Shown here: positions 1 through 21,320 of the stretch, one piece after another
Layout of the letters: every line of letters begins with the position of its first letter
Position numbering within the stretch: the stretch's first letter is position 1
NCBI GenBank assembly: GCA_020059745.1
Contig: JAGVBK010000004.1
Coordinates: forward strand, 100,797 to 164,796
Direction: 5' to 3'
Source of the DNA: Candidatus Shapirobacteria bacterium
Lineage (GTDB): Bacteria; Patescibacteriota; Microgenomatia; UM-FILTER-40-11
Length of the DNA: 64,000 nucleotides
Notes under the pieces: generated by a model
Told to the model about the DNA's origin: nothing
The model's input: only the letters and a program-made list of their open reading frames with translations
Databases searched by the model: none
Made by a program: the position numbers and the translations under genes

Positions 1-7
1 ATATCTC

Positions 8-205
8 ATGCGCCACAAAAACCAAGCTGTCACAAAGGAACAGATCATCAACCATGTATGGGATTACGATGCTGATGTTCTCCCTAATTCAGTTGAAGTT
101 TATATAAAACATTTACGCACGAAGATTGATGATCCATATCCCAATAAACCCTTAATTTATACAATTAAAGGGTTTGGTGGATACAAAATATCGGAAGAAC
201 CGTAA
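8..205 (+). CDS. Response regulator, C-terminal OmpR/PhoB-type winged-helix fragment (N-terminus lies outside the window)
   Basis: VWDYDADV...VEVYIKHLRTKID...IYTIKGFGY matches the OmpR-family DNA-binding domain; the ORF starts at the window edge. Confidence 0.6.
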   Translation: MRHKNQAVTKEQIINHVWDYDADVLPNSVEVYIKHLRTKIDDPYPNKPLIYTIKGFGGYKISEEP

Positions 206-208
206 ACC

Positions 209-1258: not shown

Positions 1259-1304
1259 GATTTTTAAGCCACTTTTAAGTTCTGCCATTTAGAATTTTTT
1301 ATAT

Positions 1305-2612: not shown

Positions 2613-2631
2613 TATTTTCTAATAAAATGCT

Positions 2632-3357
2632 ATGCCAACAATTATTAGGGCAAGAAATCTATCAAAAGTCTATAAAACGGAAACGGTTGAAACAGTTGCG
2701 CTTAACAATGTTTCTTTTGATATAGAAAAGGGCGAATTTGTGGCTATCATGGGACCATCAGGAAGCGGCAAGTCCACTCTTATGCACATTCTGGGGGCAC
2801 TGGATACTCCAACAAATGGTGAATATATTTTGGACGGAGAAAATGTCAGCAAACTTCAAGATGACGAATTGGCTGAAATCCGAAATAGGAAAATAGGTTT
2901 TGTCTTTCAGGCTTTTAATCTACTTCCCCGAAGAACAGCTTTGCAAAATGTGATGTTGCCTATGACCTACGCAGCTATCTCAAAAGAGCAGCGTCTGGAA
3001 AAAGCTAAAAAGTATCTGAAAATGGTTGGTCTGGAAGATCGCATGGAACACACTTCAAATCAGCTTTCAGGCGGCCAGCAACAAAGAGTGGCAATCGCAC
3101 GCAGTCTTGCTATGAACCCCGCGATCTTACTTGCCGATGAACCAACAGGAAATATCGCCAGTATTCAAGCCGAAGAAATAATGGCCATATTCCAAAATCT
3201 TAATAAAAAAGGACATACCATAGTCATGATTACCCACGAACCTGATATTGCCGAACATGCAAAAAGGATTATTCACATAAAAGACGGCAAGATTGTCAAT
3301 GATGGTAATGGACACAAGCAAAGGAAGGTAAATGGAATACACAGAGATAATAACTGA
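2632..3357 (+). CDS. ABC transporter ATP-binding protein (MacB/LolD-like)
   Basis: Walker A GPSGSGKST, ABC signature LSGGQQQRVAIARSL, Walker B ILLADEPTGN. Confidence 0.9.
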   Translation: MPTIIRARNLSKVYKTETVETVALNNVSFDIEKGEFVAIMGPSGSGKSTLMHILGALDTPTNGEYILDGENVSKLQDDELAEIRNRKIGFVFQAFNLLPRRTALQNVMLPMTYAAISKEQRLEKAKKYLKMVGLEDRMEHTSNQLSGGQQQRVAIARSLAMNPAILLADEPTGNIASIQAEEIMAIFQNLNKKGHTIVMITHEPDIAEHAKRIIHIKDGKIVNDGNGHKQRKVNGIHRDNN

Positions 3358-4555
3358 AGCCATAGGCACCCTCACTGTCAATAAACTAAGAACGGGGCTT
3401 GCTACTCTTGGAATCGTCATCGGTATAGGCAGCGTTATTGCTCTCGTTTCACTCGGCCAAGCGAGCCAAAAGTCGGTCGAGTCACAAATTCAGTCTCTCG
3501 GATCAAATTTGTTAACTGTGTCTCCAGGTGCTGTTAGCCAGGGAGGTGTTCGAGGAGCAACAGGAGGTGGCACCACCCTCACCTTGGAAGATGCTAAAGC
3601 CATTAGCTCTACTTCTCAAATAACCACGATTCAGGCAGTTTCTCCTGAATACCAAAGCAGAGGCCAAGTTACAACAGGTAGAACCAACACTAATACACAA
3701 ATACTAGGCGTAACACCCGTCTACGCCGATATTAGAAAAGTAACAATGGCCCAGGGTAGTTTTATCAGCGAGCAACAAGTTAGCGGTATGGCCAAGGTAG
3801 CTGTAATTGGCCCAACTGTTGTTACCGATCTTTTTGGCGAAGGAGCAAGTCCAGTTGGACAAACTGTGAGGATAAACGGCCAAACATTAACCATTATCGG
3901 AATAACAGAAGCAAAAGGTGGTTCAGGATTTCAAAATCAGGATGATATTGTTTTTGTTCCCCTCTCAACAGCCCAAAAACAACTCTTTGGTGCAGATCAC
4001 TTAACCTCAATCGTCCTTGAGGCAAAATCTGCAGATGTTATGGTAAATGCACAAAATGAGGTAGGCTATTTTCTTTTGGCAAGACATAAGTTAAACGATC
4101 CAGCAAAAGCGGATTTCTCAATAATGAATCAGCAGGACATTTTAAATACTGTAAACCAGGTAACAGGCACCTTTACAACTCTTTTGACTGGAGTTGCCGC
4201 CATTTCTCTTTTGGTTGGAGGCATTGGCATTATGAACATAATGCTTGTTACTGTTACAGAACGAACCAGAGAAATAGGGCTTCGAAAAGCCCTTGGTGCA
4301 AAAAAGAAAGTTATTATCACTCAGTTTTTAATGGAATCTATTATTCTTACGTTCGCTGGAGGGTTAATCGGAATAGGGATTGGAATTTTGGCTTCATTTA
4401 TCATTACCAAACTTAGCAATTCTCCATTTGTTGTGTCTCCGAGCTCAATTCTCTTAGCATTTGTAGTATCCGCAGGGATAGGTATATTGTTTGGCTGGTA
4501 TCCAGCCCAAAAAGCAGCAAATCTACAGCCAATTGAAGCTCTGCGATATGAGTAA
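3332..4555 (+). CDS. ABC transporter permease, FtsX/MacB family
   Basis: N-terminal TM segment, a large periplasmic domain, then a C-terminal three-helix FtsX-like bundle. It overlaps the ATPase gene. Confidence 0.8.
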   Translation: MEYTEIITEAIGTLTVNKLRTGLATLGIVIGIGSVIALVSLGQASQKSVESQIQSLGSNLLTVSPGAVSQGGVRGATGGGTTLTLEDAKAISSTSQITTIQAVSPEYQSRGQVTTGRTNTNTQILGVTPVYADIRKVTMAQGSFISEQQVSGMAKVAVIGPTVVTDLFGEGASPVGQTVRINGQTLTIIGITEAKGGSGFQNQDDIVFVPLSTAQKQLFGADHLTSIVLEAKSADVMVNAQNEVGYFLLARHKLNDPAKADFSIMNQQDILNTVNQVTGTFTTLLTGVAAISLLVGGIGIMNIMLVTVTERTREIGLRKALGAKKKVIITQFLMESIILTFAGGLIGIGIGILASFIITKLSNSPFVVSPSSILLAFVVSAGIGILFGWYPAQKAANLQPIEALRYE

Positions 4556-4582
4556 AAATATGAAAGGAGGTGAAGTTTTTAT

Positions 4583-4996
4583 ATGCAAAAAAATAGTATT
4601 GTCGTCACAATAATCGTTGCGTTAATAGTTGGTGTCGCTGCCTTTTATGGTGGAATGCAGTATCAACAACGCCAAAAAGCCAGTTTTGGTGGTAGGCAAT
4701 TCACGACTGGTGTCCCAAACGGGCAATTCCAGGCCAGGGGCAACCTCCAGGGAATACGCCCCATCAATGGCGAGATCATCAGCCAAGATGAAAATAGCAT
4801 TACCGTCAAAATGCAGGACGGCAGTTCCAAGATCGTAATCCTGTCTGATCAAACCGCAATCAACAAGGCATCTACAGGATCAAAGGACGACTTAAAGACA
4901 GGTGAGCAGGTAGCGGCTTTTGGGACTGAAAACTCAGACGGAAGCATAACTGCTCAGAATATTTCGATTGGAGAAACTTTTAGGGTTAGACAATAA
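4583..4996 (+). CDS. Hypothetical small membrane-anchored protein
   Basis: ORF with an RBS-like aggagg upstream and one N-terminal TM helix. No recognisable motif. Confidence 0.4.
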   Translation: MQKNSIVVTIIVALIVGVAAFYGGMQYQQRQKASFGGRQFTTGVPNGQFQARGNLQGIRPINGEIISQDENSITVKMQDGSSKIVILSDQTAINKASTGSKDDLKTGEQVAAFGTENSDGSITAQNISIGETFRVRQ

Positions 4997-5033
4997 GGTT
5001 CCCAACCCTCACTAACAATGCCTCTAATCAAAT

Positions 5034-5046
5034 TGGTTATATTAAG
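5034..5046. repeat. 13-bp direct repeat TTGGTTATATTAA, copy 1 (copy 2 at 5809-5821)
   Basis: An exact 13-mer found on both sides of ORF 5255-5806. Confidence 0.5.
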
Positions 5047-5254
5047 TACTATTTGGGTTAAGAAAATTCCAGGCTAATTTCTTTTTGCTCGAGGATCGTA
5101 ACGTTAATATAAGCAAAGCTTGTTTCTCATATTCACTCAAAATAACCAGTCAATATGTGCGTATACTCAAAATATTCGAGGATATTATTTTTGTTCAGAA
5201 GCTAAAAATGGAAATGATACAAATACGAAATACATGTTTTATTTAATAAACCTA

Positions 5255-5806
5255 TTAAGTTCTCTTCATATAAAAAGACATACTCGAAACAGTAATTGCC
5301 ATCGGAGATTTGAAGGGTATTGCAACTTTATTCTCATCCTTTATATCCTGTGTCGGCTCATTAGATGTGGATATCACCTGAAAAGCTATATCACCTTCAA
5401 CTTGTTGTACTGCGCTAAAATATACTCGTTTACAACTCTTGGGTGGCAGATACCTGAGCTGTAATAACATAATGCCCTTGTTGTTAGCTTTCCCACTCAG
5501 AATAAATGCTCCAGAATTGACTGACATATTTCCAAATGTTAATTCTGAATCATGATCTTGATCTTCGATATTGGTAATTTTCAATGGTGGAGGCGAGTTT
5601 AAGTTTGTTGGTAACCATGCCACTATTTGAGTGTCGAAAAGCGGAGTTTCTGTTTTATTGTAAACAACAAAATATCCCTCTTTATTCCACGTAGTTTTGG
5701 TTAGATGTATTTTTTTCGGTTTTACATCGATTTTTGGTTGAACAAATTTTACAATCCAACCAATAATATCTTTTGTAAAACCAAGTAATGAAAGAGTATC
5801 AACCAT
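5255..5806 (-). CDS. Hypothetical protein, 183 aa, downstream of the NTase operon
   Basis: Clean ORF with no recognised motif. Flanked by the 13-bp direct repeats. Confidence 0.4.
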   Translation of the reverse strand: MVDTLSLLGFTKDIIGWIVKFVQPKIDVKPKKIHLTKTTWNKEGYFVVYNKTETPLFDTQIVAWLPTNLNSPPPLKITNIEDQDHDSELTFGNMSVNSGAFILSGKANNKGIMLLQLRYLPPKSCKRVYFSAVQQVEGDIAFQVISTSNEPTQDIKDENKVAIPFKSPMAITVSSMSFYMKRT

Positions 5807-5808
5807 AT

Positions 5809-5858
5809 TTGGTTATATTAACTTACCTAAGCTCCGCGGGCCTAAGATTAATATAACC
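5809..5858. promoter_or_regulatory. Perfect 11-bp inverted repeat (GGTTATATTAA ... TTAATATAACC, 26-nt spacer), giving a candidate hairpin terminator after the NTase gene or an operator for ORF 5255-5806
   Basis: Left arm 5811-5821 and right arm 5848-5858 are exact reverse complements. The left arm is also copy 2 of the 13-bp direct repeat (5809-5821). Confidence 0.4.
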
Positions 5859-5950
5859 TTTGACTTCACTCCAATTATACTCGCCTTACAAGATTTGAGG
5901 TACATCGGAGAGATGAGGCAAAGGTGGGAAGAAATTAAAAAAATTAGCAC

Positions 5951-7369
5951 TCATTCATCTTTAATTCCAACATAAAACCTGCCGGTGGCGACACAAACAC
6001 CCTTATTTATGGCATAGCAATCAACCCAATGCATACCTGGGTATTGGGTGTGTTCTTCTTTAAAGTCTGAGTCTCCCTCGCAAAAGTGAAATTCGTTTCC
6101 TCTCCAACCGCCTATGCGTGCCATTTCTAATGCCGGAAGTCCATTATTAACCACTAACCACCTTATTTCATCATATACAAGTCCATTAATATCTGGTGAA
6201 AAATATAAGGAATAGTCCTTGCTAAGATATTCTCCTGAAGTCATTGACCTTGTGCCATTAAGTACCTCAAGTTGAAACTTAGAAAATGGTTTTGGAATAT
6301 TCTTGAAAGAAGGAGGATTTTTAACCTTTTCTGAGCGCTTGACCTTGCAGGAAACGTTAATTTTTGAGGGGTTAGGAGCAAAAGGCCATGGCGGATTAGC
6401 AATGAGACTCTCCCTCAAAGCAGAATATACTTCTTCTCTTTCCTCTTCTGGCATGTTCACAAATTTACTTAATGCTTTGGAGGCAAAATCCACGGCTAAT
6501 TTTCTTTGCACTCCCGTTTTGTCTTCATTCAAATAACTGTCCACAAAAATATTGCTCTCTGCCATATCTGGTATTGCTGGTTTCTCTAGCCATTGCCCCA
6601 TATTTTTAAGGAAATAACAAACTGTATCATAAAAATTAATACCTTTATTCTGGGCAAAGATATTTGTGATAACCAGCTCAAAATGAAAGGATTTCAGCTC
6701 AAACTCGGTTAATCCGGCATTACACGACTTTTTCCAAACTTTAGCAAACTTGACGGATTTTCTATAACTAGGATTTGAATTTAAATTTAAAGCTTGTTTG
6801 ATGTAGCCTTTGGGGTCAGACAAAATCCAGGGAATTTTCCCTCCACTAACGCTATATTTCTTGGCCCAATTGCCCTGGTGCATTTTCTGGATTTCTGGAA
6901 CCAAATAAATATCGTCTCCATGCCTGTTTTTTCTTCCAGATTTTAAAGCGGGAACAACATCTATGGAAAAACCCTTTTCTTTTGGAAAAGCGATGCTAAC
7001 TGAGTGTGTTTGGTCTGCGTCAATTTCTACTTCTTCTCCTATTTTACGATAACCTTCGGCCAAAATTGAAGCTAAGCTTTGTAATGGGTCTTTAACATCA
7101 AAATAGAAGGGTTCACCTTGCTTAGCGCTTGAAAAAAGCTTACTTCCGGTTACTTGAAAAGCTTCAGGTAATATCCATATTATGTCAAGGTCGTGAACGG
7201 GGGTTACTGAAGTTTCTCTAACATATGAACCGCTTTGAAAAATTTCATTCCCCAATATCTCTTGAAGGTCGCTGTAATGTTTTGAAATAACTTCTCTTTC
7301 CTCCGCCGGGGGCGATAAATACTTGCGACAAAACTCCTCTAAGGTGGTATTAACTTCGTCTTGGTTCAT
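5951..7369 (-). CDS. CD-NTase / SMODS-like nucleotidyltransferase (pol-beta superfamily) with an extra C-terminal domain
   Basis: GSYVRETSVTPVHDLD fits the GS...[DE]h[DE] pattern, with a third acidic residue in FSIDVVPAL. A helical C-lobe follows, then ~140 aa of unknown function. Confidence 0.55.
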   Translation of the reverse strand: MNQDEVNTTLEEFCRKYLSPPAEEREVISKHYSDLQEILGNEIFQSGSYVRETSVTPVHDLDIIWILPEAFQVTGSKLFSSAKQGEPFYFDVKDPLQSLASILAEGYRKIGEEVEIDADQTHSVSIAFPKEKGFSIDVVPALKSGRKNRHGDDIYLVPEIQKMHQGNWAKKYSVSGGKIPWILSDPKGYIKQALNLNSNPSYRKSVKFAKVWKKSCNAGLTEFELKSFHFELVITNIFAQNKGINFYDTVCYFLKNMGQWLEKPAIPDMAESNIFVDSYLNEDKTGVQRKLAVDFASKALSKFVNMPEEEREEVYSALRESLIANPPWPFAPNPSKINVSCKVKRSEKVKNPPSFKNIPKPFSKFQLEVLNGTRSMTSGEYLSKDYSLYFSPDINGLVYDEIRWLVVNNGLPALEMARIGGWRGNEFHFCEGDSDFKEEHTQYPGMHWVDCYAINKGVCVATGRFYVGIKDE

Positions 7370-7913
7370 ATCGGTACGAGGACATAATGGAAAAGATATC
7401 GCTCACTAAGCGAAGTGGCATGCTTGATAGAGCATACCATTTGTAATCTTTAATTATTTCTTTATGTTTATCGTCAAGTTGGTAGCCTATTTCAAAGGTA
7501 TAAATAATTAAAGGTTTATCGGCTCGCCTGACCATTTGAAAAAAATCGTCAAAGTCATTCATTCCCCTATGGTATCCCAGTATTATAATGCCAGCTTCAT
7601 CAATATCTTTCTGGTCAATAGCATGGAAATCGGTTACAACTCCTTTAGAGACATTAAAATAGCCTGAACTCTTAAGAACCCCAAGCTCCCGTTCCATGTC
7701 TTTTGTCCCGCCATCATTTCTCTTTCCTCCAGGCGGACAAAAAATAAAAACCTTTTTGCCTAAATTCTTCCCAAGTCTCCAAAAAACTTTGGCCGACCGG
7801 CTGAAAATAACAATGAACCCTACAATAGCCACGAGAAGACCACCAGCGGCTTTTAAAATATCCCAAGCATCTAAAGCAGTGGTAATTTTATTAATATCTA
7901 TATCGGTTTTCAT
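7350..7913 (-). CDS. Single-pass membrane protein with a small alpha/beta (Rossmann-like) domain, translationally coupled to the NTase
   Basis: One TM helix (LLVAIVGFIVIFS), then VFIFCPPGG...GGT...IIILGYHRG. Its stop overlaps the NTase start by 20 nt. Confidence 0.45.
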   Translation of the reverse strand: MKTDIDINKITTALDAWDILKAAGGLLVAIVGFIVIFSRSAKVFWRLGKNLGKKVFIFCPPGGKRNDGGTKDMERELGVLKSSGYFNVSKGVVTDFHAIDQKDIDEAGIIILGYHRGMNDFDDFFQMVRRADKPLIIYTFEIGYQLDDKHKEIIKDYKWYALSSMPLRLVSDIFSIMSSYRYEPRRS

Positions 7914-7973
7914 CTTTTTCTTTCAAAACAAATGCTTGACATTTACTGTAGATATACCATAAACTTATTATAA
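7914..7973. promoter_or_regulatory. Divergent promoter region between the TM-NTase operon and lexA
   Basis: TTGACA at 7936-7941. TACTGTAGATATACCA contains a CTGT half-site reminiscent of an E. coli-type SOS box, but the second half-site is not matched. Confidence 0.25.
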
Positions 7974-8567
7974 ATGCAAGATGTAAAACCGCTTACAGAG
8001 CGGCAAAAACAAGTTCTAGACTTCATAAATTCATTTTTAAGCGAGAAAGGCATTTCCCCTTCGCTCAAGGAAATTGCCAGCTTTTTAAATACAAATAATC
8101 TTAGCTCAGCTCAATATTTCATTAATGAGCTTGAAGATAAGGGGTATCTTCGGAAAAATGCCAATAAAGCAAGAGGAATCATGCCTATCCCAAAAAAATA
8201 CTCAATTCCTTTGCTCGGTTTTATTGCCGCAGGAGAACCAATTGAGCCAATTGAATCTCCGGATGAAATATCCATTCCTCCAAGCATGGAAATAGACATA
8301 AAGTATCCTCACTATGCCCTCCAAGTTAAGGGTGATAGTATGATTGATATGGGGATTTTAGATGGTGATATTGTTATTATTAAACATCAGTTAACTGCTA
8401 GTAGCGGAGAAACGGTCGTTGCCGTTACAGAGAATGGAGCAACCTTGAAAATCTTTAAAAAAGAAAACGACCAAGTATTTTTGGAACCAAGAAATAAGGA
8501 GTATCAGACAATTTATCCGCAAAGGCTAGATATTAGAGGCAAATTTGTTGGCTTAATTAGAAACTAA
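7974..8567 (+). CDS. lexA: LexA repressor (S24 peptidase)
   Basis: N-terminal winged HTH, cleavage-site region LLGFIAAGEPI, catalytic Ser in KGDSM and Lys in TLKIFKK. Confidence 0.85.
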   Translation: MQDVKPLTERQKQVLDFINSFLSEKGISPSLKEIASFLNTNNLSSAQYFINELEDKGYLRKNANKARGIMPIPKKYSIPLLGFIAAGEPIEPIESPDEISIPPSMEIDIKYPHYALQVKGDSMIDMGILDGDIVIIKHQLTASSGETVVAVTENGATLKIFKKENDQVFLEPRNKEYQTIYPQRLDIRGKFVGLIRN

Positions 8568-8569
8568 AC

Positions 8570-9496
8570 ATGTTTTTAGAAATAAACAAAGTCCATCAGG
8601 GTGATGCGAGGAAACTGCTAAAGCAGGTAGAACCAAATTCAGTATCCTTAAGTGTTTGGTCTCCACCTTATTTTGTAGGAAAGGAATACGAAAAATACTT
8701 ATCATATCAAGATTGGGTTGACCTTTTAACCTCGGTAATTTCACTTCATGAACCAATATTAAAGCCGGGTGGTTTCCTTGTAGTTAATATTGCTGATATT
8801 CTCGCCTTTCAAGATAAATCAATCCCTCGTTTTCAAGCGCTTACCCTTACTAGACAAAAGTGTTCGGTTAGTCAGAAAGATGTTCTTGAAGCCAAAAAGA
8901 AGCACCCTGACTACAACCGATATCAACTTGCAGAATTATTGAAGTGTAGTGAGCAAACAATCGATAGAAGACTAAATGGCAATAACATAAGAGGCGGTAA
9001 ATACAACAATCAAACCAGAGTCCATTTAGTCGGAGATATTATTGAAAAACCGGCATATAAAGCAGGCTTATATCTTTATGATAGAAGAATTTGGAAAAAA
9101 GACCCTTGTTGGGAAAATAGCAAGTGGCATTCTTTATCCTACCGCTCTGTTGATGAATTTGAATATTTGTACTTTCTCTGGAAGCCAGGAATAACTACTG
9201 TTGACCGCAAAAGATTAAGCAAGGAAGAATGGAAGGATTGGGGTTCAAGAGGAGTTTGGGAAATACCTTCCGTTAGGACAAATAACGACCACGAAGCGAA
9301 ATTTCCCTTAGAACTCCCCAAAAGAGCAATAAGGCTTCTTACTTCACCAGGAGATGTTGTTTTAGATTGTTTTATGGGAAGTGGAACAACTGCCATTGCA
9401 GCAATTAATGAAGGAAGAAATTTTATCGGTATTGAATTAGAACCAAAATATGTTGATTTATCAAACCGAAAGATAAAAGAGGTGCAATCTAAATAA
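8570..9496 (+). CDS. DNA methyltransferase (beta-class amino-MTase, likely N4-cytosine or N6-adenine) with an inserted HTH-like segment
   Basis: Motif IV SPPY (VWSPPYF) lies N-terminal and motif I DCFMGSGTTAIAA lies C-terminal. The start is 2 nt after the lexA stop. Confidence 0.8.
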   Translation: MFLEINKVHQGDARKLLKQVEPNSVSLSVWSPPYFVGKEYEKYLSYQDWVDLLTSVISLHEPILKPGGFLVVNIADILAFQDKSIPRFQALTLTRQKCSVSQKDVLEAKKKHPDYNRYQLAELLKCSEQTIDRRLNGNNIRGGKYNNQTRVHLVGDIIEKPAYKAGLYLYDRRIWKKDPCWENSKWHSLSYRSVDEFEYLYFLWKPGITTVDRKRLSKEEWKDWGSRGVWEIPSVRTNNDHEAKFPLELPKRAIRLLTSPGDVVLDCFMGSGTTAIAAINEGRNFIGIELEPKYVDLSNRKIKEVQSK

Positions 9497-9515
9497 AAAT
9501 TTATTTATTAGTTTT

Positions 9516-10367
9516 TTATCTAGATTTTTCTTCCCACTTATTTCCGTTTATCCGAACAATTTTTGTACATCGCCAATTTTCAATTGAGGCCAAAGGGTTT
9601 AACCTAATTCTTATCCGCTTTGTATCGTCTGCTCTACTCTTTTCATCCTTACCGCAAATAATTAAACCGGGGGTCTCAGCTAATTTGGGTCCGTCAAACA
9701 TTAGCAAACCATTGGGAACACAGGCTAATTCAAAATATTTTAAGGGTTGAAAACCTATTTTTTCAACTTCATATACCGCCTTCAAAAACATTGTTATACA
9801 AAGAAGCGGCTTGTCGTCAATTAAATAAAAGGGTGGCAGCTTCGGTTGAAAGTTATAGTTGATTTTACCATTCCCTTGATAATGCACAGGCCAAGGTGAA
9901 TTAATAATTCCGTTTTTCCAATCATCACCTCTACCTGAAACTTGATTAGGAGGAACAACCACTTCATTTGGATTATCATTTGGTCCAGTTAACTTAATAT
10001 CTAAATGAACCAATGTCTCTTTATTGGTAAAACGGATATCTCCGCCTGTTGGCAAACCAGGAAACCTAACTTCTGAAAAAGCTTTAATAATTTTTGAAGT
10101 AAGATTATAACTAATTGTTTTCTCTCCTAACTCTAGCCAGGGAACAGAATTCCCTGTTGGTTGTCTTCCTCTCTGCTCTGGAGGATAGTTTGACCAAAAA
10201 GGATATAGCTTCCAAGCGTATTCCGTAAAATCTAAATAGAGGTCGTCGGCAATATCAAGAACTATGCCCTTGATTTTAAGGCAATGCTCTTTTTCTACTT
10301 TCCGAACGGTTTCAAGGTTGTTAACGAAATAATCTCTAACCTTAAAATAACTTTTCGCGTCAGTCAT
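9516..10367 (-). CDS. Hypothetical protein, a candidate restriction endonuclease partner
   Basis: Lies 19 bp from the MTase stop and is convergent with it, a common Type II R-M arrangement. No firm PD-(D/E)xK motif. Confidence 0.3.
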   Translation of the reverse strand: MTDAKSYFKVRDYFVNNLETVRKVEKEHCLKIKGIVLDIADDLYLDFTEYAWKLYPFWSNYPPEQRGRQPTGNSVPWLELGEKTISYNLTSKIIKAFSEVRFPGLPTGGDIRFTNKETLVHLDIKLTGPNDNPNEVVVPPNQVSGRGDDWKNGIINSPWPVHYQGNGKINYNFQPKLPPFYLIDDKPLLCITMFLKAVYEVEKIGFQPLKYFELACVPNGLLMFDGPKLAETPGLIICGKDEKSRADDTKRIRIRLNPLASIENWRCTKIVRINGNKWEEKSR

Positions 10368-10469
10368 AGTCTATGTTTGGGAGAAATCTATCAACGACAG
10401 CTTACCATAAAAGCATTTGAAATGAAATAATCACCCTATTTTTTTTCTTAAGAGACTAGCGATGGAGGT

Positions 10470-10694
10470 GTGGCTAATAATGGCCAAACAAAGAGGTTAC
10501 CAGTAACTTTGTATGGCTATCAGTTCTACGAAGAAAATGACATTGCTCAGGGCACACTTTACTTTGGTGACTGGAGCTACTATGTGATTGGAGACAGACA
10601 GACCATTTCGGTCAGGACAACGACTGAAGGAGGCGACGCTTGGAGGAGAAACGCTATGGAGAGTAATAAAGATACTCTATTTCGTAGAAATTAG
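10470..10694 (+). CDS. Hypothetical small protein
   Basis: ORF only. Confidence 0.3.
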   Translation: MANNGQTKRLPVTLYGYQFYEENDIAQGTLYFGDWSYYVIGDRQTISVRTTTEGGDAWRRNAMESNKDTLFRRN

Positions 10695-10746
10695 TAGAAA
10701 ATACTAGAAAACTTGACATCGCAATTTTTACCATTAATATGGAGGT

Positions 10747-11670
10747 ATGACCACCATATGTGAGGGCTGTACCATTGAATTTGCACCAAAGAGGAATGGC
10801 CAAAAATATCATAGTAGAGACTGTTTTCTGAAAGCCACACTAAAACTTCTTGTTTGTCCCCATTGTGGCCAAAAGTTTCAAAAAAAATTCTCTGGCCAAA
10901 TTTGCTGCTCCCGGAAGTGTTCCTATAAATTTAGGGCAAAGAAGGTTAGCAGGGGCAGTATTGTTTATTGCTCTCTTCCTTCCTGCAGTAAGGCAATATA
11001 CAGGATGCCGTCTAGAATTAAAAAGTATAATTTTTGCTGCTCAGAACATAGGGCTCTCTACCAAAAATCTCCTGAAAATAAGGACTTCGGCAAAGGGTGG
11101 AAACATACTGCCGAAGAAATCGCGAAAATTAGGCAAGCTAACTTAAACAGGGATTATAGTCAGACATTTACGGAGGAAGAAAGAGCTAAGGCTGCTAAAA
11201 GGGCGAGGAACAAGGTATGGACTCCTGAAGCTAGGAAAAATGCCAGCTTATCTCATTTGGGTAAGAAACTCCCAGAAGAGCAAAAACGAAAAATAAGGGA
11301 GAATTCTCCCAAAGGCGAGGAAAATAAACAATGGAAAGATGACGATGCGAGCTATGCGGCAAAGCATAGTTGGGCCAAAAGGCACATGGAAAAACCAAAG
11401 GTTTGTGCCTTCTCCCAAACCGAGGGGCATCTCTGTAAAGGAAGGTTGGAACTAGCCAACAAAAATCACCAGTATGAAAGAAATATTGACGATTGGGCTT
11501 GGATGTGCCGGTACCATCACGATAAATTTGATGTCGAAAACGGCTTGCGCCGCCTGACCCCCAAAACGGTGAAAATTTACGGGAAGTTTATTAACCCGAA
11601 AGTAAAAAATTTAAGCATAAGTGGCATAGTAGATAACCCAACAATTAGTCCTAATTTGAACTATCAATAA
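10747..11670 (+). CDS. HNH endonuclease with NUMOD3-like repeats and a Cys-rich N-terminus (homing-endonuclease-like)
   Basis: N-terminal CxxC clusters. Repeats GWKHTAEEIAKIRQAN and VWTPEARKNASLSHLGKKLPEEQKRKIREN resemble NUMOD3. The C-terminus HLCKG...NHQYERNIDD...CRYHHDKFD is HNH-like. Confidence 0.6.
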   Translation: MTTICEGCTIEFAPKRNGQKYHSRDCFLKATLKLLVCPHCGQKFQKKFSGQICCSRKCSYKFRAKKVSRGSIVYCSLPSCSKAIYRMPSRIKKYNFCCSEHRALYQKSPENKDFGKGWKHTAEEIAKIRQANLNRDYSQTFTEEERAKAAKRARNKVWTPEARKNASLSHLGKKLPEEQKRKIRENSPKGEENKQWKDDDASYAAKHSWAKRHMEKPKVCAFSQTEGHLCKGRLELANKNHQYERNIDDWAWMCRYHHDKFDVENGLRRLTPKTVKIYGKFINPKVKNLSISGIVDNPTISPNLNYQ

Positions 11671-11729
11671 ACTTATCAGAAGGCTACCTCTGGTAGACGA
11701 TAAGAGATAGTTCAAGGGTTGTTTCCCCT

Positions 11730-11948
11730 TTGGAAACGTTAGAGAACCCAGTAAGAGGCGTTTTAAATGCCTTTACTGGGTTCTTTTGGAAAAATATGAA
11801 AGACAAAAATAGCGAAGTTAAAAACGTTGATGAAATAGCAGAACATTGGGCGAGGCTAATTTTGTCGCATATTGAAATTAAAAAAAGAAAAGAAAAATCT
11901 ATGTTAGCAAATAAAAAAGGTCGATTTATGGCGCCAAATAATATATAA
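11730..11948 (+). CDS. Hypothetical small protein upstream of the recombinase (possible directionality factor)
   Basis: ORF only. Confidence 0.3.
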   Translation: METLENPVRGVLNAFTGFFWKNMKDKNSEVKNVDEIAEHWARLILSHIEIKKRKEKSMLANKKGRFMAPNNI

Positions 11949-11971
11949 TTAATTAACTATAGGACAAATTT

Positions 11972-13498
11972 ATGAAGACTTGCTACGCCTACATTAGGGT
12001 TTCTACTGATGAGCAAAAGAATAAAGGTTATTCTCCAGATAATCAAATTAGGCAGGTTAGAGATTATACTGAACTACACGAATATCGCATCAAGAAGATA
12101 TTTGATGATAGTGGAAGAAGCGGGCGGTCAACGGAGCATCGGTATGAACTTCAGAGTTTATTAAGTGCAGTCGACTCTAACCCGGTAGATGCCGTCATAA
12201 TATATAAAATTGACCGCTTTGCCAGAAATGTCGGAGATTTTGACAGGATTTATAAAAATTTTAAGACAAAAGGTATTAAACTTATTTCTGTTACTGAAGG
12301 CGATTTAACAGAGGGAAATAGTTTAATTCCCAATATTTTTGCTTCTGTAGCCCAATGGGAGTCAGAAGCAAATAGTTTGAGAACAAAAGATGCTTTGGCT
12401 CAAAAATTTGAAGAAGGCTGGCAACCAACCCCTCCCCCTATTGGCTACCGAACAGTTGGTGGGGAAAGGGAAAAAAAGACTTGTGAGCCTGACACTTATA
12501 CTGCGCCGATAATAAAAGAGCTTTTTAAAATGTATTCCACTGGAAATTATTCAATTCTTGCTTTGCAGGATTGGCTAAGTCAAAAGAACATTGTTTCTAA
12601 AAATGGAACCGGATTGGGACATAGTGTTATTTGCAATATCCTTAATAATCCTTTTTATTATGGACTAATTCGCTGGCATGGGGAGTCAAAAATCGGCAAG
12701 CACAAACCAATAATAGATAAATCGCTTTACGAGACGTGCCAGTATATTTTAGCTAAACATCGTAGTTTCCTAATTAGGAAGCGGGTACATGATTACTTAT
12801 TGAGAGGTTTCATCTTTTGTCATTATTGTGGCCAAAGGTATACTGCCGAACCTCATCCCAACCATTCAGTTAATAAACCTGGGGTAATCCATTACTATCA
12901 TTGCCCTAAAAGAGAACGAAATGGTTGCCCTTCAAAATACATTGAGGCAGATACTCTTGAGAAACAGATAGAAGAAGAGTTTAAAAAGCTCCAATTTAGC
13001 GAAGAATTCATTGAAGCAGTGATAAGGAAGGCCAAAGAAATCATCGCCCAAAACAGAAGAGAAAAGTCATCAGTAATGCGAGGTATTATTAATCAAAAAA
13101 ATGCTTTGGAAAATAAAAGGAATACCCTTGAAGATGCATTGTTAGATGGCACTATTGATAGAGAAACCTTTAAACGCCGCCATAATGCTTTGCAACAGCA
13201 ATTAATTAACTTAGATAACCAAATAACAGAATTTGACAACCAGGGGAAAATCGATATTGACTTAATTGAGGAAGTGCTTGCTTTTACGAGGGACATTTAT
13301 CAAACATATATTGAAGCCCCCGATTACCTTAAAAGGCATTATCTAAGGTTTTTCTTTGAGAAAGTTATAGTGAAGGATAAGAAAATATATAAAGTAATCC
13401 CGACTCCTATATTCAAAATATTGAAAAATAGGCACGAAATTATAATAAGAAAGAATTGGCTCCCCCGCGTGGATTCGAACCACGAACCTACCGCTTAA
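11972..13498 (+). CDS. Large serine recombinase (integrase)
   Basis: N-terminal resolvase catalytic motif YAYIRVSTDEQ, a recombinase domain, a zinc ribbon CHYCGQ...HCPKRERNGC and a C-terminal coiled coil. The ORF's 3' end reads into tRNA-Asn. Confidence 0.85.
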   Translation: MKTCYAYIRVSTDEQKNKGYSPDNQIRQVRDYTELHEYRIKKIFDDSGRSGRSTEHRYELQSLLSAVDSNPVDAVIIYKIDRFARNVGDFDRIYKNFKTKGIKLISVTEGDLTEGNSLIPNIFASVAQWESEANSLRTKDALAQKFEEGWQPTPPPIGYRTVGGEREKKTCEPDTYTAPIIKELFKMYSTGNYSILALQDWLSQKNIVSKNGTGLGHSVICNILNNPFYYGLIRWHGESKIGKHKPIIDKSLYETCQYILAKHRSFLIRKRVHDYLLRGFIFCHYCGQRYTAEPHPNHSVNKPGVIHYYHCPKRERNGCPSKYIEADTLEKQIEEEFKKLQFSEEFIEAVIRKAKEIIAQNRREKSSVMRGIINQKNALENKRNTLEDALLDGTIDRETFKRRHNALQQQLINLDNQITEFDNQGKIDIDLIEEVLAFTRDIYQTYIEAPDYLKRHYLRFFFEKVIVKDKKIYKVIPTPIFKILKNRHEIIIRKNWLPRVDSNHEPTA

Positions 13499-13531
13499 CA
13501 GGCGGACGCTCTACCGTTGAGCTACAGGGGA
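13457..13531 (-). tRNA. tRNA-Asn(GTT)
   Basis: Reverse-complement cloverleaf: acceptor TCCCCTG, D-arm AGCTCAACGGTAGAGC, anticodon loop CTGTTAA, T-arm GGTTCGAATCC, encoded CCA. Confidence 0.85.
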
Positions 13532-13585
13532 ATATTGCCTGTATGTGGGGCATATTTTAACAATTTTGGGGGTTTCTGACAAGGC

Positions 13586-14719
13586 CTACTCCAAATAATC
13601 CTGAAGCTTTTTCCTTCTTGAAGGATGCTTAAGTTTTCTTAGGGCTTTTGCTTCTATTTGTCTTATTCTTTCCCTGGTTACCCCGAATTTTTTGCCCACT
13701 TCTTCTAAAGTCATAGGCTTGCCGCCTTCAAGACCGAATCTGTAAACTAATACCTTTGCTTCCCTTGGGGTTAGGGTTTCAAGCACTTCTTTAATGTTGT
13801 CCTTTAAAAGCTGCTTTGAAGCAGTGTCGTAAGGAGATGGGGCGGTATCGGCAATAAAATCTCCTAAAAGAGAATCCTCCTCGTCTCCTACCGGTGCTTC
13901 CAAAGAAGTTGTTCCCTGGGCAATTTTTAAAATCTCCCTCACTTTTGCCGGCGGAATTTCCATTTCTTTGCCTACTTCTTCAGGGGTTGGATCTCTTCCC
14001 AGCTCCTGCATCAGCTTTCTTGAAATTCTCATGAGCTTATTAATGGTTTCCACCATGTGAACAGGAACTCTAATAGTCCTTGCCTGGTCAGCAATAGCTC
14101 TAGTAATAGCTTGTCTGATCCACCAGGTGGCATAAGTTGAGAATTTATAACCTCTTCTCCAGTCGTATTTTTCTACTGCCCGAATAAGCCCTTGGTTTCC
14201 TTCCTGAATAAGGTCAAGAAGGGTCAAACCCCGGCCAACATATCTTTTGGCAATGGAAACAACCAACCTTAAGTTTGATTCCGTCAGTTTCCTTTTAGCA
14301 GCCAGGCTGCCTTTTTCAATTTTTTGAGCCAAGTCAACCTCTTCCTCTGCTTTAAGAAGCGGAATTCTGCCAATCTCCCGAAGATACATTCTCACCGGGT
14401 CAGAAACAGCAGGAGATTCCAAAGAAGAAAGAACCTCAATTTCCCGGGCAAAATCCTTAGCCATTTTCTCGCTTTCCCTTATCTCTTCTTCACTTAAGGA
14501 GTCAAAAATATCAATACCTTCATCAATTACTTTGGTGTAAAATTCCTCAAGTTCATTAAGATAGTTTTCTGCAAAAGGAAAAACCTGAAGCACCTCATCC
14601 TGGGTAACAAATCCTTCTTTTTTACCTTTTTCAATCAGCTTTTTAATTGCTTTTTGGTCAATTAAAATTTTGTTTTCTTCTTTTTTCTGGTCTTTGACTG
14701 CAGTTTTCGGCATATGCAT
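13586..14719 (-). CDS. rpoD: RNA polymerase sigma-70 factor RpoD
   Basis: Regions 1.2 through 4, including [14 protein letters not shown] and [20 protein letters not shown]. Confidence 0.95.
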
Positions 14720-14753
14720 ATTTTACCTCATTTGAGCTTGATTTAAAAGGTTT

Positions 14754-16535
14754 TTATATTGTTTTTCCAAGTGTAGCCAGTTTCCTGGTTAAAAGAAGCA
14801 TTTTTTCCCTGGTCTTTTTCTCTTCTTCCTCGCTTTTCTCGCTTTTAATCTGGTCAGTTAACTTTTTAATCTCCTCTCTAATTTTAAGTGTTTCAAGTTG
14901 CTTCTCTGATTCTTCAAGCTCTTTCTCCAACCATTGTTTATCCTCTATTCTGGCCCCAAAGTCAACCAGATAAAGCTTGTCATAAGCATCTCTAAGCTCA
15001 ACCGGCAAAAAATTAAAAAAGAATTGGCTTGAGAATCTTTTGTTTTCTTTAAAAAATTCTTCCAGTTTTTCAATTAGCTTAACATAAACAGGCAAGTTAA
15101 TTAGACTTCTTGTTTTTTCCGAAAGCAGTCTTTTTGCCTCCTTGCCTTGGAAAGCCAGGGCAATAAGATATTCTTCAAGAATTTCCCGCCTTGTCTTTTG
15201 TATAACCGGTTGGCTCTGTTTTGGAGTCACGGGGGCTTTGCTAAAAACCTTTTTTGTCTGCAAAATTATTGATTCCTCGTTTACTTCAAGCTTTTCTGAA
15301 AGCCTTTTTATGTAGATGTCTTTAATGATTTCGTCTTCAATTTTAGCCAGTATGGGAATAAGCTCCTGGCCGATTTTCCTTTTTTCCTCTGCTGTTTTGC
15401 CCCGATATCTCTTAAAAGCAGAACTAATAAAAAAATCATAAATATTCTCCGCGTTATTTATTTGTTCTTTTAGATAGTCAGGCTCTTTTTGGGCAGCCTC
15501 GTCTGGGTCTTTGTACTTTTCCAAAGTAACTACTTTTAGGTTAAAACCGGCTTTGTCTGCAATCTCAATTCCCCGGCGGGAAGCCATGTCTCCGGCTGAA
15601 TCAGAATCTAAAGACAAAACTAAATTCTCACAAAATCTTTTAAGAAGCCTTGCTTGTGCCTCAGTTAAGGCCGAACCTTTAATTGCCACCACATTTTTTA
15701 TTCCCACCTGAAAGCAGGAAATGGCATCAAGTTCGCCTTCTACCACTACAGCCGTATTTTCCTTTTTAATCTCCTCTTTAGTTATTTGCAAAGGGTACAA
15801 AAGCTCGCTTTTGTGGTAAATGGCCGTTTCCGGAGTGTTGACATATTTTGCTTCTTTAGCATTAGCGTCAAGAAGCCGGCCGGAAAACCCGGTTACATTA
15901 CCTCGGTGGTCAAACAAAGGAAACATTACTCTGTCCCTGAAGCGATCATAAAATGAATCTCTTTTTTGGCCTTTAATAACCAAGCCTGCTTTTTCAAGAT
16001 CTAAAACATCATAGCCTTTTTTGCCAACAAGATACTTTTGCAAACCTTCCCACATGGGCGGAGAATAACCAATCTTAAACTTTTCAAGTGAGCCTTTGGT
16101 TATTCCTCTTTGGAGAATGTAACTTAAGGCCTTTTTGCCAATGTTATGGCTTACCAAAAGATAATGAAAGAACTCAGAAGCAAGATGATTCACTTCATAA
16201 AGCTTTTCTTTTTCCGACTCGTTTTTACTGGGCCGGTAGCTTTCAAGTTTAACCCCTGCTTTTTTAGCCAAAATCCGCAAAGCCTCGCCAAACTCGATTC
16301 TTTCCATTTCCATTAAAAAGCCAAAAGCGTCCCCGCCTTTCTGACAGCCAAAGCAGTGCCAAATCTGTCTTTCCGGAGAAACCATAAAAGAAGGGGTTTT
16401 TTCTGAATGAAAAGGGCAAAGCCCCTTAAAATTCCTGCCTGCTTTTGTTAAAACAACTGATTCAGAAATAAGCTGCACTAAGTCAATTTTTGAGCGGATT
16501 TCTTCTATCTGGTCCATGTGGCCTGATTTTAACAC
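14754..16535 (-). CDS. dnaG: DNA primase DnaG
   Basis: Zinc finger CPFHSEKTPSF...CFGC, then TOPRIM VVEGELD...DSDSAG. Confidence 0.9.
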   Translation of the reverse strand: MLKSGHMDQIEEIRSKIDLVQLISESVVLTKAGRNFKGLCPFHSEKTPSFMVSPERQIWHCFGCQKGGDAFGFLMEMERIEFGEALRILAKKAGVKLESYRPSKNESEKEKLYEVNHLASEFFHYLLVSHNIGKKALSYILQRGITKGSLEKFKIGYSPPMWEGLQKYLVGKKGYDVLDLEKAGLVIKGQKRDSFYDRFRDRVMFPLFDHRGNVTGFSGRLLDANAKEAKYVNTPETAIYHKSELLYPLQITKEEIKKENTAVVVEGELDAISCFQVGIKNVVAIKGSALTEAQARLLKRFCENLVLSLDSDSAGDMASRRGIEIADKAGFNLKVVTLEKYKDPDEAAQKEPDYLKEQINNAENIYDFFISSAFKRYRGKTAEEKRKIGQELIPILAKIEDEIIKDIYIKRLSEKLEVNEESIILQTKKVFSKAPVTPKQSQPVIQKTRREILEEYLIALAFQGKEAKRLLSEKTRSLINLPVYVKLIEKLEEFFKENKRFSSQFFFNFLPVELRDAYDKLYLVDFGARIEDKQWLEKELEESEKQLETLKIREEIKKLTDQIKSEKSEEEEKKTREKMLLLTRKLATLGKTI

Positions 16536-16564
16536 AAAGAGGAAGGGAAAAATTAAAGAGCTAT

Positions 16565-16640
16565 GCGGAAGAGGTGGGAATGTGTGCGCTTGCTTCGCAA
16601 TGCTCCGTTAATCCCGTCCTTCCTTGATGCGTTTCTGCGG
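16565..16640. repeat. ~72-bp repeat unit, copy A (a solo copy with no adjacent tRNA)
   Basis: A tRNA-Ser-3'-end-like GCGGAAGAGGTGGGA, then the core ATGTGTGCGCTTGCTTCGCAATGCTCCGTTAATCCCGTCCTTCCTTGA, then TGCGTTTCTGCGG. Confidence 0.5.
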
Positions 16641-16814
16641 TGTCTGTTTGAAAATATCCGAACGGAACTGGCTGGGCTCGGCGGGCGGAATTCCCCCCAC
16701 ACCCCTCTTCCGCCCGCCTCGCCTTGCCTGCCCGACAAATAGGCGGGAACCGGAGCGGAAAGGACGATTTCAAGTTTTTCTTTGGCGGCAAATTCTTTTA
16801 TTTCCTCTTCAGGA

Positions 16815-18418: not shown

Positions 18419-18497
18419 GCGGAAAGGGTGGGAGGGTGTGCGCTTGCTTCGCAATGCTCCGTTAATCCCGCCCTTCCTTGAAACTGCGTTTCTGCGG
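18419..18497. repeat. ~72-bp repeat unit, copy B, inserted at the 3' end of tRNA-Ser(CGA)
   Basis: GCGGAAAGGGTGGGA + core GGGTGTGCGC...CCTTCCTTGA + AACTGCGTTTCTGCGG, followed by a duplicated GCGGAAAGGGTGGGA that is the tRNA 3' end. Confidence 0.55.
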
Positions 18498-21224: not shown

Positions 21225-21320
21225 TGCGTTTTTGCGGAGAGGGTGGGAGGGTGTGCGCTTGCTTTGCAATGCTCCGTTAATCCCGCCCTTCCTTGATGCG
21301 TTTTTGCGGAGAGGGTGGGA
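21225..21320. repeat. ~72-bp repeat unit, copy C, at the 3' end of tRNA-Ser(TGA), with a 24-bp flanking duplication
   Basis: TGCGTTTTTGCGGAGAGGGTGGGA + core GGGTGTGCGCTTGCTTTGCAATGCTCCGTTAATCCCGCCCTTCCTTGA + TGCGTTTTTGCGGAGAGGGTGGGA, followed by TTCGAACCC of the tRNA. Confidence 0.55.

Follow-up and report, generated by a model that had tools for sequence, protein, structure and literature searches.

We analysed a stretch of 64,000 nucleotides (the window) from a Candidatus Shapirobacteria bacterium (assembly GCA_020059745.1, contig JAGVBK010000004.1, positions 100,797-164,796 of the forward strand), in which a gene for a large serine recombinase (LSR) abuts the tRNA-Asn(GTT) gene and is preceded by a group of accessory and defence genes (Table 1). 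An initial annotation had described this group as an accessory or defence island integrated at tRNA-Asn by the adjacent LSR, and four contigs carrying the empty site bear this out. Its further statements on the gene content also largely agree with our data: the LSR open reading frame (ORF) of 508 amino acids runs into a tRNA gene called by both ARAGORN and Rfam, with an overlap of 42 nt, and the core genes rpoD and dnaG begin immediately rightwards. The nucleotidyltransferase operon, lexA and the methyltransferase with a convergent partner were recovered as matches to SMODS/AGS_C, TIGR00498, PF01555 and PF14562. In our reading, positions 5831-13458 very probably represent an integrative element that was inserted by its own LSR at the extreme 3' end of tRNA-Asn(GTT), the tail of the recombinase being cut off on integration.

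Table 1. Features of the tRNA-Asn locus (window positions). The core is the sequence shared by both junctions; P and P' are the two arms of the attachment site attP; the tail is the C-terminal extension of the recombinase described in the text; HMM, hidden Markov model.
Feature	Position	Strand	Evidence or remark
Degenerate tail ORF of the relic	5085-5246	+	LLEDRNVNIS..ILKIFEDIIFVQKLKMEMIQIR; starts TTG at 5085
Putative older relic of the same family, 0.74 kb	5088-5830	.	Tail-profile match, att geometry; GC 0.328
Outer core-like GCTCG of the relic	5088-5092		Within AT-rich gap 4997-5254
P arm of the relic, TTAATATAA	5105-5113		Core spacing as in the younger element
183-amino-acid ORF of the relic	5255-5806	-	
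P'-like half-site of the relic, GGTTATATTAAC	5811-5822		
Far junction: core GCTCC (5831-5835) and P arm with TTAATATAA (5848-5856)	5831-5858	+	Inverted repeat of the P' motif
Displaced LSR 3' segment	5832-5975	+	Encodes LRGPKINITFDFTPIILALQDLRYIGEMRQRWEEIKKISTHSSLIPT and stop; tail HMM E 2e-21; simulated excision; homology to P0120 tail
SMODS-family oligonucleotide cyclase, C-terminal AGS-C sensor domain	5951-7369	-	PF18144, PF18134; PADLOC 'Cyclase' PDLC00785, 3.3e-71, full length
187-amino-acid single-pass membrane protein, candidate CBASS effector	7350-7913	-	PADLOC PDLC01057 (TM) 3e-24; PDLC00664 'Effector 1TM' 1.1e-5
LexA, winged helix and S24 peptidase	7974-8567	+	PF01726, PF00717; TIGR00498, 158.8 bits vs cut-off 110.95
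N4/N6 DNA methyltransferase	8570-9496	+	PF01555 2.6e-42; PADLOC MTase_II PDLC03260 4.9e-169
BglI/SfiI-family type II restriction endonuclease	9516-10367	-	PF14562 7.5e-82; PADLOC REase_II
HK97-type major capsid protein fragment, 74 amino acids, C-terminal part	10470-10694	+	PF05065 6.6e-8; TIGR01554
307-amino-acid Cys-rich protein	10747-11670	+	Weak PHROG 314 match, E 1.5e-3
72-amino-acid ORF, candidate accessory or directionality factor	11730-11948	+	Just upstream of LSR; same position in L152, L112, L134
LSR, integrated short form, 508 amino acids	11972-13498	+	Pfam PF00239, PF07508, PF13408; PHROG 95
P' arm of attP, within LSR ORF	13437-13458	+	Contains ATTATAATAAG
tRNA-Asn(GTT), integration target	13457-13531	-	ARAGORN; Rfam RF00005 at 13460-13531, 67.6 bits; empty-site comparison with L085
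Core GCTCC at tRNA-side junction (P'-core-B)	13459-13463	.	BLAST pieces of L085 overlap by exactly 5 bp
rpoD	13586-14719		Directly right of tRNA-Asn
dnaG	14754-16535		After rpoD

The empty site and the limits of the mobile unit

The empty tRNA-Asn site that the initial annotation had anticipated was obtained by an exact-protein look-up of the 183-amino-acid ORF at 5255-5806, which returned four short contigs from four samples (L082-L084, Logan runs SRR10812145/6/8; L085, JGI 3300037067). In all four, the 3' half of tRNA-Asn is fused straight to window position 5830, upstream of the 183-amino-acid ORF. The junction reads ..GGTTCGAATCCACGCGGGGGAGC/TTAGGTAAGTTAATATAACCAAATATG.. (slash, point of fusion), the tRNA end ..GGGGGAGC abutting TTAGGTAAGTTAAT.. 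and the ATG of the 183-amino-acid gene, and the far side is 99.6-100% identical to the window. L085 packs the 3' end of rpoD, the whole tRNA and the 183-amino-acid gene into 1,030 bp; in BLAST it matched the window at 100% over 5835-5213 and at 98% over 13705-13459, with GGAGC as the only overlap of the two pieces. Because these four contigs show the empty site, the mobile unit can be delimited as 5831-13458, that is 7,628 bp with one copy of the core GCTCC, which is present at 5831-5835 and at 13459-13463. The far boundary had been placed, as probable, in the AT-rich gap 4997-5254. For the mobile unit this was not correct, as the currently polymorphic unit ends at the core at 5831; it does apply to the composite island, whose edge, a relic junction at 5088-5092, lies in that gap.

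The occupied form was found on a 62.9-kb JGI contig, Ga0104761_1000192, that is 99.994% identical to the window over 1-16714. Exact look-ups of the island nuclease and of LexA returned this contig only; the recorded blocks were long contigs, none of them from Logan. No gene is called on it at the position of the recombinase, and we infer that the JGI pipeline drops coding sequences that overlap tRNAs. Exact look-ups of the recombinase itself and of a 137-amino-acid protein of the flank returned nothing. In run SRR10812145, contig L001, which spans the tRNA, rpoD and a part of dnaG (15805-13460), is 99.96% identical to the window, and the empty junction is carried by a separate contig, L083. 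The presence or absence of the element is a strain-level polymorphism with base-precise junctions. As a separate observation, L085 is 98-100% identical to the window from the last 120 nt of rpoD onward, and clearly divergent deeper in rpoD (L085 1-165 compared with window 13706-13870). Either strains have recombined here to give a mosaic, or the contig stems from another, closely related species with the same locus.

Comparison with L085, in which the tRNA ends in ..GGGGGAGC/TTAGG, indicated that the terminal bases of the window tRNA-Asn (A72/G73 onward, the encoded CCA included) come from the island: the island-supplied end is ..GCCA, its empty-site counterpart ..GC/TTA. The tRNA stays intact because the exchange touches only its last few bases. 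The initial annotation had pointed out that there is no obvious tRNA-fragment direct repeat and had suggested looking for a partial tRNA-Asn 3'-end copy (attL). Repeat finding and searches with two probes of 24-25 nt, allowing up to 3 mismatches, revealed no displaced tRNA-Asn 3' fragment, so that the point stands; the repeat is of 5 bp only, and with so short a core no such fragment is expected for a serine recombinase. The GC content of the island (0.375) is lower than that of the flanks (0.40-0.41), although the difference is small. Among GTDB species representatives, a search with rpoD gave nearest relatives of 67-70% identity, in which the order dnaG-rpoD-tRNA-Asn is kept and the window's genes are absent; they yield no readable empty site because they have no flank genes in common with the window.

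The recombinase gene and its attachment sites

The LSR ORF contains the Resolvase, Recombinase and Zn_ribbon_recom domains (PF00239 at 1.5e-31 over residues 5-149), matches PHROG 95 'integrase' at 3e-103 over residues 1-480 and also matches the catalytic domain of TP901-1 integrase (3bvp). S11, R9 and the zinc-ribbon residues C283, C286, C311 and C319 are invariant among 44 homologues. At the level of sequence, it has the resolvase catalytic domain with its Ser, the recombinase domain, and the four-Cys zinc ribbon with a coiled coil. An AlphaFold2 model of the homologue P0120 contains these same domains, the coiled coil included, and has two long helices (344-391 and 397-440) flanked by strands of the zinc ribbon. 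The best NCBIfam similarity of the LSR is to CcrB (2e-45), at 155 bits against a cut-off of 900. The last 13 residues (..WLPRVDSNHEPTA) represent a reverse-complement reading of the acceptor and T arm of the tRNA; the ORF ends in ..KNWLPRVDSNHEPTA, residues 497-508 being encoded by core and tRNA DNA. The occupancy polymorphism and the existence of a circular relative are indirect evidence that the LSR may catalyse both integration and excision.

Serine recombinases swap strands at a central dinucleotide, and their attP and attB sites otherwise share little. Among 40 distinct junctions of the family, the core was GCTCC in 38 and GCTCG in 2. Based on the symmetry and on the GCTCG variants, the crossover most likely occurs at the TC dinucleotide inside the core (tRNA G71-A72). 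The family consensus of P' in these junctions is aggTtAtAaTAAG, at -21 to -10 from the core. In the window element, P' (..TTATAATAA..) and P (..TTAATATAA..) are each 13-14 nt from the core centre, and the reconstructed attP reads ..AAGAAAGAATTG GCTCC GCGGGCCTAAGATTAATATAACC... The far ends of six further elements (L124, L139, L144, L152, L156 and L160) have the same architecture. As is typical for serine integrases, attP and attB are identical over a few bp only, and attP is an imperfect inverted repeat.

Codons 496-498 of the LSR ORF span the core, and joining window position 13458 to 5831 extends the ORF in frame (..RKNW-LRGPKINITFDFTPIILALQDLRYIGEMRQRWEEIKKISTHSSLIPT, then stop) to a long form of 543 amino acids. 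Long tails not derived from a tRNA can be aligned among P0120, P0101, L157, L163, L166, L176/L177, L179 and L187, and the window tail is, by eye, about 50% identical to that of P0120. In other integrated elements, a profile of the tail located the corresponding displaced stretch 6.7-11.1 kb upstream of where the recombinase ORF ends, on the same strand as that ORF. Simulated excision at GCTCC resulted in an in-frame fusion to a conserved tail of about 45 amino acids (..YIGELRQRWEEIKKL..) in nine of nine elements (the window element, L124, L139, L144, L152, L156, L160, L137 and L133); the chance of agreement in frame alone in all nine is about (1/3)^9. The tail has the conserved motif ..FQN.sYIGELRQRWeEIKKL.., in whose 19 codons the proportion of nonsynonymous differences (pN) was 0.22 and that of synonymous differences (pS) 0.97 (45 pairs). 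As pN is far below pS, this indicates selection at the protein level. The position of attP inside the integrase ORF makes the C-terminus of the protein dependent on the integration state: the integrated enzyme keeps all canonical domains (the fold extends to about residue 492) and loses an appendage of linker plus helix. The window tail ends in ..SSLIPT, which is not LAA-like.

P0120 itself is a long form of 538 amino acids, encoded on 9,676-bp contigs from three sequencing runs (L189-L191). Each contig has a terminal overlap of 30 nt, and the three are exact rotations of one 9,646-bp circle, with 0 mismatches. The P0120 ORF crosses an intact attP (GGTTATATTAAG..GCTCC..ATTGATATAAGC). In its AlphaFold2 model, the canonical fold ends with the strand at 490-492 and is followed by a disordered, low-confidence linker (496-518), to which the codons of the core and the P arm contribute. 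The other contigs with attP-type tails (L163, L157, L166, L187 and others) were negative for a terminal overlap, so that circularity was shown for the P0120 contigs only. The circle carries genes for DUF5659, a 247-amino-acid HTH_36 protein, a 962-amino-acid KAP NTPase, a 62-amino-acid HTH_17/MerR-type (excisionase-like) protein and an HTH_3 regulator. The HTH_36 protein is a possible replication initiator, and given its closed assembly the circle may persist as an episome.

Relatives, relic and cargo

The LSR is part of a large clade of the Microgenomates. Its relatives are numerous (542 at E <= 1e-20, with 59-78% identity among the matches listed), and those with names come from Microgenomates, Daviesbacteria, Roizmanbacteria, Shapirobacteria and Patescibacteria. 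Their C-termini are mostly translated tRNA, such as LPRVDSNHEP, LPREDSNLEP or LPRQDSNLQP. A metagenome scan with the family alignment returned 80 loci, of which 4 were cut by contig ends and 76 were complete. A called tRNA-Asn(GTT) overlaps the ORF end on the opposite strand in 44 of the complete loci; in 19 others, a tRNA-like T arm directly follows GCTCC (truncated contigs or degenerate genes), which places 63 of 76 at a tRNA-Asn or tRNA-like 3' end. The tail is not tRNA-derived but of the 'attP type' in about 7 loci. In at least 20 loci the LSR and tRNA genes are followed by rpoD/dnaG, with rpoD 61-73% identical; the elements lie so constantly beside rpoD because dnaG-rpoD-tRNA-Asn is core synteny in the GTDB relatives.

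The window's cyclase, effector, LexA and nuclease genes occur in none of the relative loci. The only cargo in common is a module of the capsid fragment, the 307-amino-acid and the 72-amino-acid ORF, shared with L152 and L118/L119. In nine other elements with both ends mapped, the top 25 of 60 cargo families were surveyed. The commonest were helix-turn-helix regulators, DUF5659 and HTH_36 as well as C5, N4/N6 and N6 methylases; further common families were Vsr, MutH-like and NgoFVII nucleases, subunits of type I/III restriction-modification (R-M) systems, SocA/Panacea, M78 peptidase, DUF4145 and Hypoth_Ymh. Virion, packaging and conjugation families were not among these 25. The other elements carry R-M, toxin-antitoxin and regulator genes, and the family thus consists of small (6.7-11.1 kb), tRNA-Asn-specific elements with defence and addiction cargo.

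Several further observations concern the tails. Three other recurrent read-through tails were noted, ..KWDDYRKxDWxxEIEYPxLT.. (P0007, P0042, P0066, P0084), ..DSNxxPxxYSxPLVTKRxGLSH.. (P0024, P0039, P0040, L121, L164, L182, L183) and ..LPLxDLFxNQKIEFG.. (P0029, P0068, L126, L133), which suggest other targets or neighbouring element types; the target of the PLVTKRxGLSH type might be the end of a tmRNA or of a long-arm tRNA. L176/L177 contain, at 2690-4900, an intact long-form recombinase followed by what is left of a second recombinase gene, its 3' end joined to a tRNA-like fragment (..LDLDSNQEPSRYTNPHISMKRGLSH..), an insertion-sequence-type transposase (289 amino acids) and rpoD. No tRNA-Asn is called there, and the arrangement looks like a tandem array that has been scrambled, again at this hot spot. 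An orphan tail ORF (MLPEPWINIALDF..YIGELRQRWEEIKKL..) without a recombinase nearby is present on a relative's chromosome (L193 10001-10180, L194 1403-1582). It adjoins the response regulator/histidine kinase/MFP/ABC/MacB/DUF5666 cluster that flanks the window island, in the opposite relative orientation, and may be the scar of a past integration combined with an inversion.

Directly beside the far junction, we read 5088-5830 as the probable remnant of an earlier insertion that has lost its own recombinase and retains the 183-amino-acid ORF between two half-sites. Its GCTCG, followed by N12 and TTAATATAA, has the geometry of L187. The tail HMM matches at 5133-5231 (E 6e-5), and the degenerate tail ORF resembles the tails of a distant subgroup (P0101, L157, L166, L187). 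The segment is present in the empty-site contigs as well. The 20 nt flanking the younger core (GGTTATATTAACTTACCTAA) agree with the P' consensus in 10 of its 12 positions when shifted by 1 nt. With the relic of an earlier insertion adjoining the element, tRNA-Asn is a repeatedly used hot spot.

Of the cargo, the genes closest to the far junction form an operon, in which the gene for the 187-amino-acid membrane protein comes first and overlaps that of the cyclase. Against the NCBIfam equivalogs for cyclases of the cyclic-oligonucleotide-based antiphage signalling system (CBASS) the cyclase scored 56 and 44 bits, below the cut-off of 200, and judging from their matches cyclase and single-pass protein are best described as a CBASS-like pair. 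The lexA gene is divergent from this operon. The 60-nt region between them, inspected by eye, showed no clear SOS box; it holds a promoter-like TTGACA-N18-TAAACT and a half CTGT motif. No second lexA is present in the window, and island-free strains would be without this copy. LexA may couple expression of the defence genes to DNA damage. The methylase gene starts 3 nt past the lexA stop, and the two are probably co-transcribed. Methylase and nuclease genes are convergent and 20 nt apart, in line with the adjacency expected of a type II R-M system. The BglI site GCCN5GGC is not avoided in the window (16 sites compared to 7.8 expected from shuffles; none lies inside the island), which fits a recent acquisition or another specificity of this BglI-family enzyme.

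The capsid fragment recurs in L152 (6584-6811) and L118 (about 900-1290; 132 amino acids), with a pN/pS of 0.2-0.3, in elements whose recombinases are only about 67% identical to that of the window. It could be the slowly eroding remnant of an ancestral phage or else a small protein that has been retained; as a capsid-gene relic, it indicates phage ancestry. The ORF at 10747-11670 had been labelled an HNH/NUMOD endonuclease. This label could not be confirmed, since Pfam and NCBIfam gave nothing and PHROG a weak match only; homologues of 43-51% identity occupy the same position in L118, L119 and L152. The 72-amino-acid ORF had no match in Pfam, PHROG or NCBIfam, and no Phage_integrase domain was found among the annotated ORFs of the island.

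Outside the island, a repeat of about 63-79 nt occurs in three copies (16565-16627, 18419-18481 and 21233-21309; 92% and about 90% identical) without an Rfam match. Two copies lie directly 3' of tRNA-Ser, and their first 15 nt equal the tRNA-Ser 3' end (GCGGAAAGGGTGGGA). The JGI contig that is otherwise identical to the window diverges at 16714, beside the first copy. These repeats look like attachment-site scars or a small tRNA-linked element.

Proposed mechanism, alternatives and significance

We propose that insertion would take place at the acceptor-stem/discriminator position by recombination across the 5-bp GCTCC common to attP and attB. The element would excise as a circle encoding the 543-amino-acid enzyme with its flexible linker and C-terminal helix, and this enzyme would recombine attP with the tRNA-Asn end. 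Integration would then lead to the 508-amino-acid form, the tail being replaced by about 12 tRNA-encoded residues and the tail segment parked at the far end. The coiled coil governs synapsis in LSRs, as established for A118- and phiC31-type integrases; the tail helix would be located just past the zinc ribbon, near the base of the coiled coil, and could modulate direction or stability there. Integration would be self-limiting, and excision would need another input, which might be the product of the 72-amino-acid ORF or, in relatives, the HTH_17, DUF5659 or HTH_36 proteins. We have high confidence in the structure, and moderate to low confidence in the function that we infer for the tail swap. 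A difference in activity or stability between the long and the short form, by which integration would reset the enzyme as a built-in commitment or directionality switch, is a tentative proposal, somewhat less likely than not. Slightly more doubtful still is that this clade of serine integrases of the Candidate Phyla Radiation (CPR) has evolved a gene that partitions itself to a regulatory end, integration removing the helix or freeing a peptide of about 50 amino acids and thereby setting directionality, activity or stability. Such a self-partitioning gene would be a topology-encoded switch that replaces or supplements a classical recombination directionality factor.

A number of results weigh against this interpretation. 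The attP junction of the window element was not found; the circular assembly of P0120 could also stem from tandem copies. In the P0120 model the tail helices (508-516 and 519-537) have a predicted local distance difference test score of about 50, which is too low to assign a docking site. The tail peptides had no PHROG match, and the precomputed Pfam column of the tail ORFs is empty. The distal arm of the empty site resembles a P'-type half-site of the relic, and the younger element may have entered a non-canonical site. Transfer, packaging and replication genes are lacking in the element, and IMG/VR scans, with the protein and with the family alignment, gave relatives of at most 30% identity and no phage genome tied to the family. 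Finally, the tail profile has at least 315 database matches (E <= 0.001); each of the 120 listed is a short ORF of 39-94 amino acids that stands alone. The tail may accordingly work as an independent peptide, either in addition or as an alternative. According to this explanation, the tail would be a gene of its own for a peptide of about 50 amino acids and not, or not only, an extension of the LSR. The peptide would act in trans, perhaps on directionality or regulation, and would be translated in the integrated state from an NTG start made at the junction (xxG of the core, then CTC). In roughly a third of the listed ORFs, the protein starts as MLPxP precisely where the core lies; of 8 junctions examined, 5 have GTG or TTG as the codon ahead of CTC (the core G makes it NNG); and the tail ORF of the relic begins with TTG at 5085. 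In the window, however, that codon is AAG and no in-frame start precedes the tail, and the database holds called genes only, so that junctions with a start codon are over-represented. Moreover, the nine in-frame fusions out of nine and the intact fused ORF in the circle speak for the fusion as the product under selection. Both readings could hold at once; we rate that of a stand-alone peptide, as well as its translation from a junction-made start, lower and consider both unlikely.

A decayed prophage, fixed and immobile, in which the overlap of recombinase and tRNA and the tail segment are functionless leftovers, would account for the capsid-gene fragment, for LexA- and CI-type repressors as typical of prophages, for the placement of the recombinase in the phage integrase family PHROG 95 and for the clearly decayed older relic next to it. 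It does not agree with the strain-level presence or absence and the base-precise junctions, with a recombinase that is intact in all conserved residues, with both att arms and the tail ORF being intact and in frame, or with a family member found as a circle. In 7.6 kb the 74-amino-acid capsid fragment is the sole virion trace, and the best recombinase relative in IMG/VR is 30% identical. We therefore regard a dead prophage as very improbable. The order LSR-tRNA-Asn-rpoD-dnaG in at least 20 metagenomic loci from different species could also be taken to mean that the recombinase is a conserved chromosomal resolvase, housekeeping or domesticated, among ordinary core genes. This is hardly conceivable given that near-identical strains have empty sites, that the cargo between recombinase and far junction is wholly different among loci, that the elements have conserved att sites and sizes of between 6.7 and 11.1 kb, and that GTDB relatives have dnaG-rpoD-tRNA-Asn without the window's genes; the cargo is not conserved in relatives, and the recombinase goes with the element.

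Compared with known systems, the element with its LSR shares with phage-type LSRs (A118, TP901-1, phiC31, Bxb1) the domain order, the coiled coil inserted in the zinc ribbon, the very short attP/attB identity (5 bp here), an attP that is an imperfect inverted repeat and the integrase gene at the element's edge. In contrast to these, it targets a tRNA gene end, has its attP inside the integrase ORF and belongs to a family of small elements (7-11 kb) with defence cargo and without virion genes. Staphylococcal cassettes (SCCmec with CcrA/B/C) are likewise small cargo cassettes inserted by an LSR at the 3' end of a conserved housekeeping gene; here, however, the target is tRNA-Asn and not rlmH, a single recombinase acts instead of a pair, and scores are far below the family cut-offs. 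With Islander-type tRNA islands and defence islands the element has in common the integrase abutting the tRNA, variable cargo, reuse of the locus and tandem or relic elements. It differs by recombinase family and mechanism: there is neither a tyrosine recombinase nor a displaced tRNA 3' fragment of tens of bp as direct repeat. The initial annotation had called the integrase next to its tRNA site the classic arrangement, which is true of tyrosine integrases. Among serine integrases, t(m)RNA targets were counted in 14 of 297 (4.9%), compared to 44.5% of tyrosine integrases, and were described as rare and not previously reported, with experimental proof required (PMC7192596).

Partition of an integrase gene by its own recombination site is a feature of the 'suicidal' tyrosine integrases of the Sulfolobus spindle-shaped virus (SSV) type, which a 2021 review describes as exclusively archaeal (PMC8371274). 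The location of attP inside the recombinase's own gene and its partition on integration are the common point. In the SSV type, a tyrosine enzyme with separated functional domains is destroyed by the split, whereas here a bacterial serine enzyme loses a tail of about 45 amino acids only. The nearest analogy among bacteria is the integration-dependent immunity of the mycobacteriophages BPs and Brujita (Broussard et al. 2013, as outlined in PMC9262239), whose repressor gene contains attP and loses the code for a C-terminal degradation tag when the phage integrates at a tRNA. The shared features are attP in the 3' end of a gene, attB over a tRNA and a C-terminus that integration changes, and with it the behaviour of the product; there, a repressor is truncated by a tyrosine integrase across a core of about 35 bp and an ssrA-like tag is removed. 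In the window element, by contrast, the crossed gene is that of the serine recombinase and not LexA, the core has 5 bp, and the tail, a conserved helix, carries no LAA-like tag at its end. We found no published description of this family or of serine recombinases in Patescibacteria; the full-text search was incomplete, and an earlier description is possible.

A defence island at a tRNA is ordinary. What is unusual is a CPR-wide, tRNA-Asn-specific clade of serine integrases, with a 5-bp core at the tip of the tRNA and a conserved partition of the integrase gene. Serine integrases are prized as genome-engineering tools and have been regarded as avoiding tRNA targets. The clade described here is well populated and as a whole specialises in the end of one tRNA, and its att sites are legible straight from the sequence. 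Partition of an integrase gene has so far been described only for archaeal tyrosine integrases, and the exchange of tails suggests how a serine integrase could sense whether it is encoded on a circle or in the chromosome, which bears on the control of direction. For the Microgenomates, uncultivated bacteria with tiny genomes, the elements of 7-11 kb appear to be the means by which R-M, CBASS and toxin-antitoxin cassettes are traded, and this exchange appears to be centred on a single hot spot beside rpoD.

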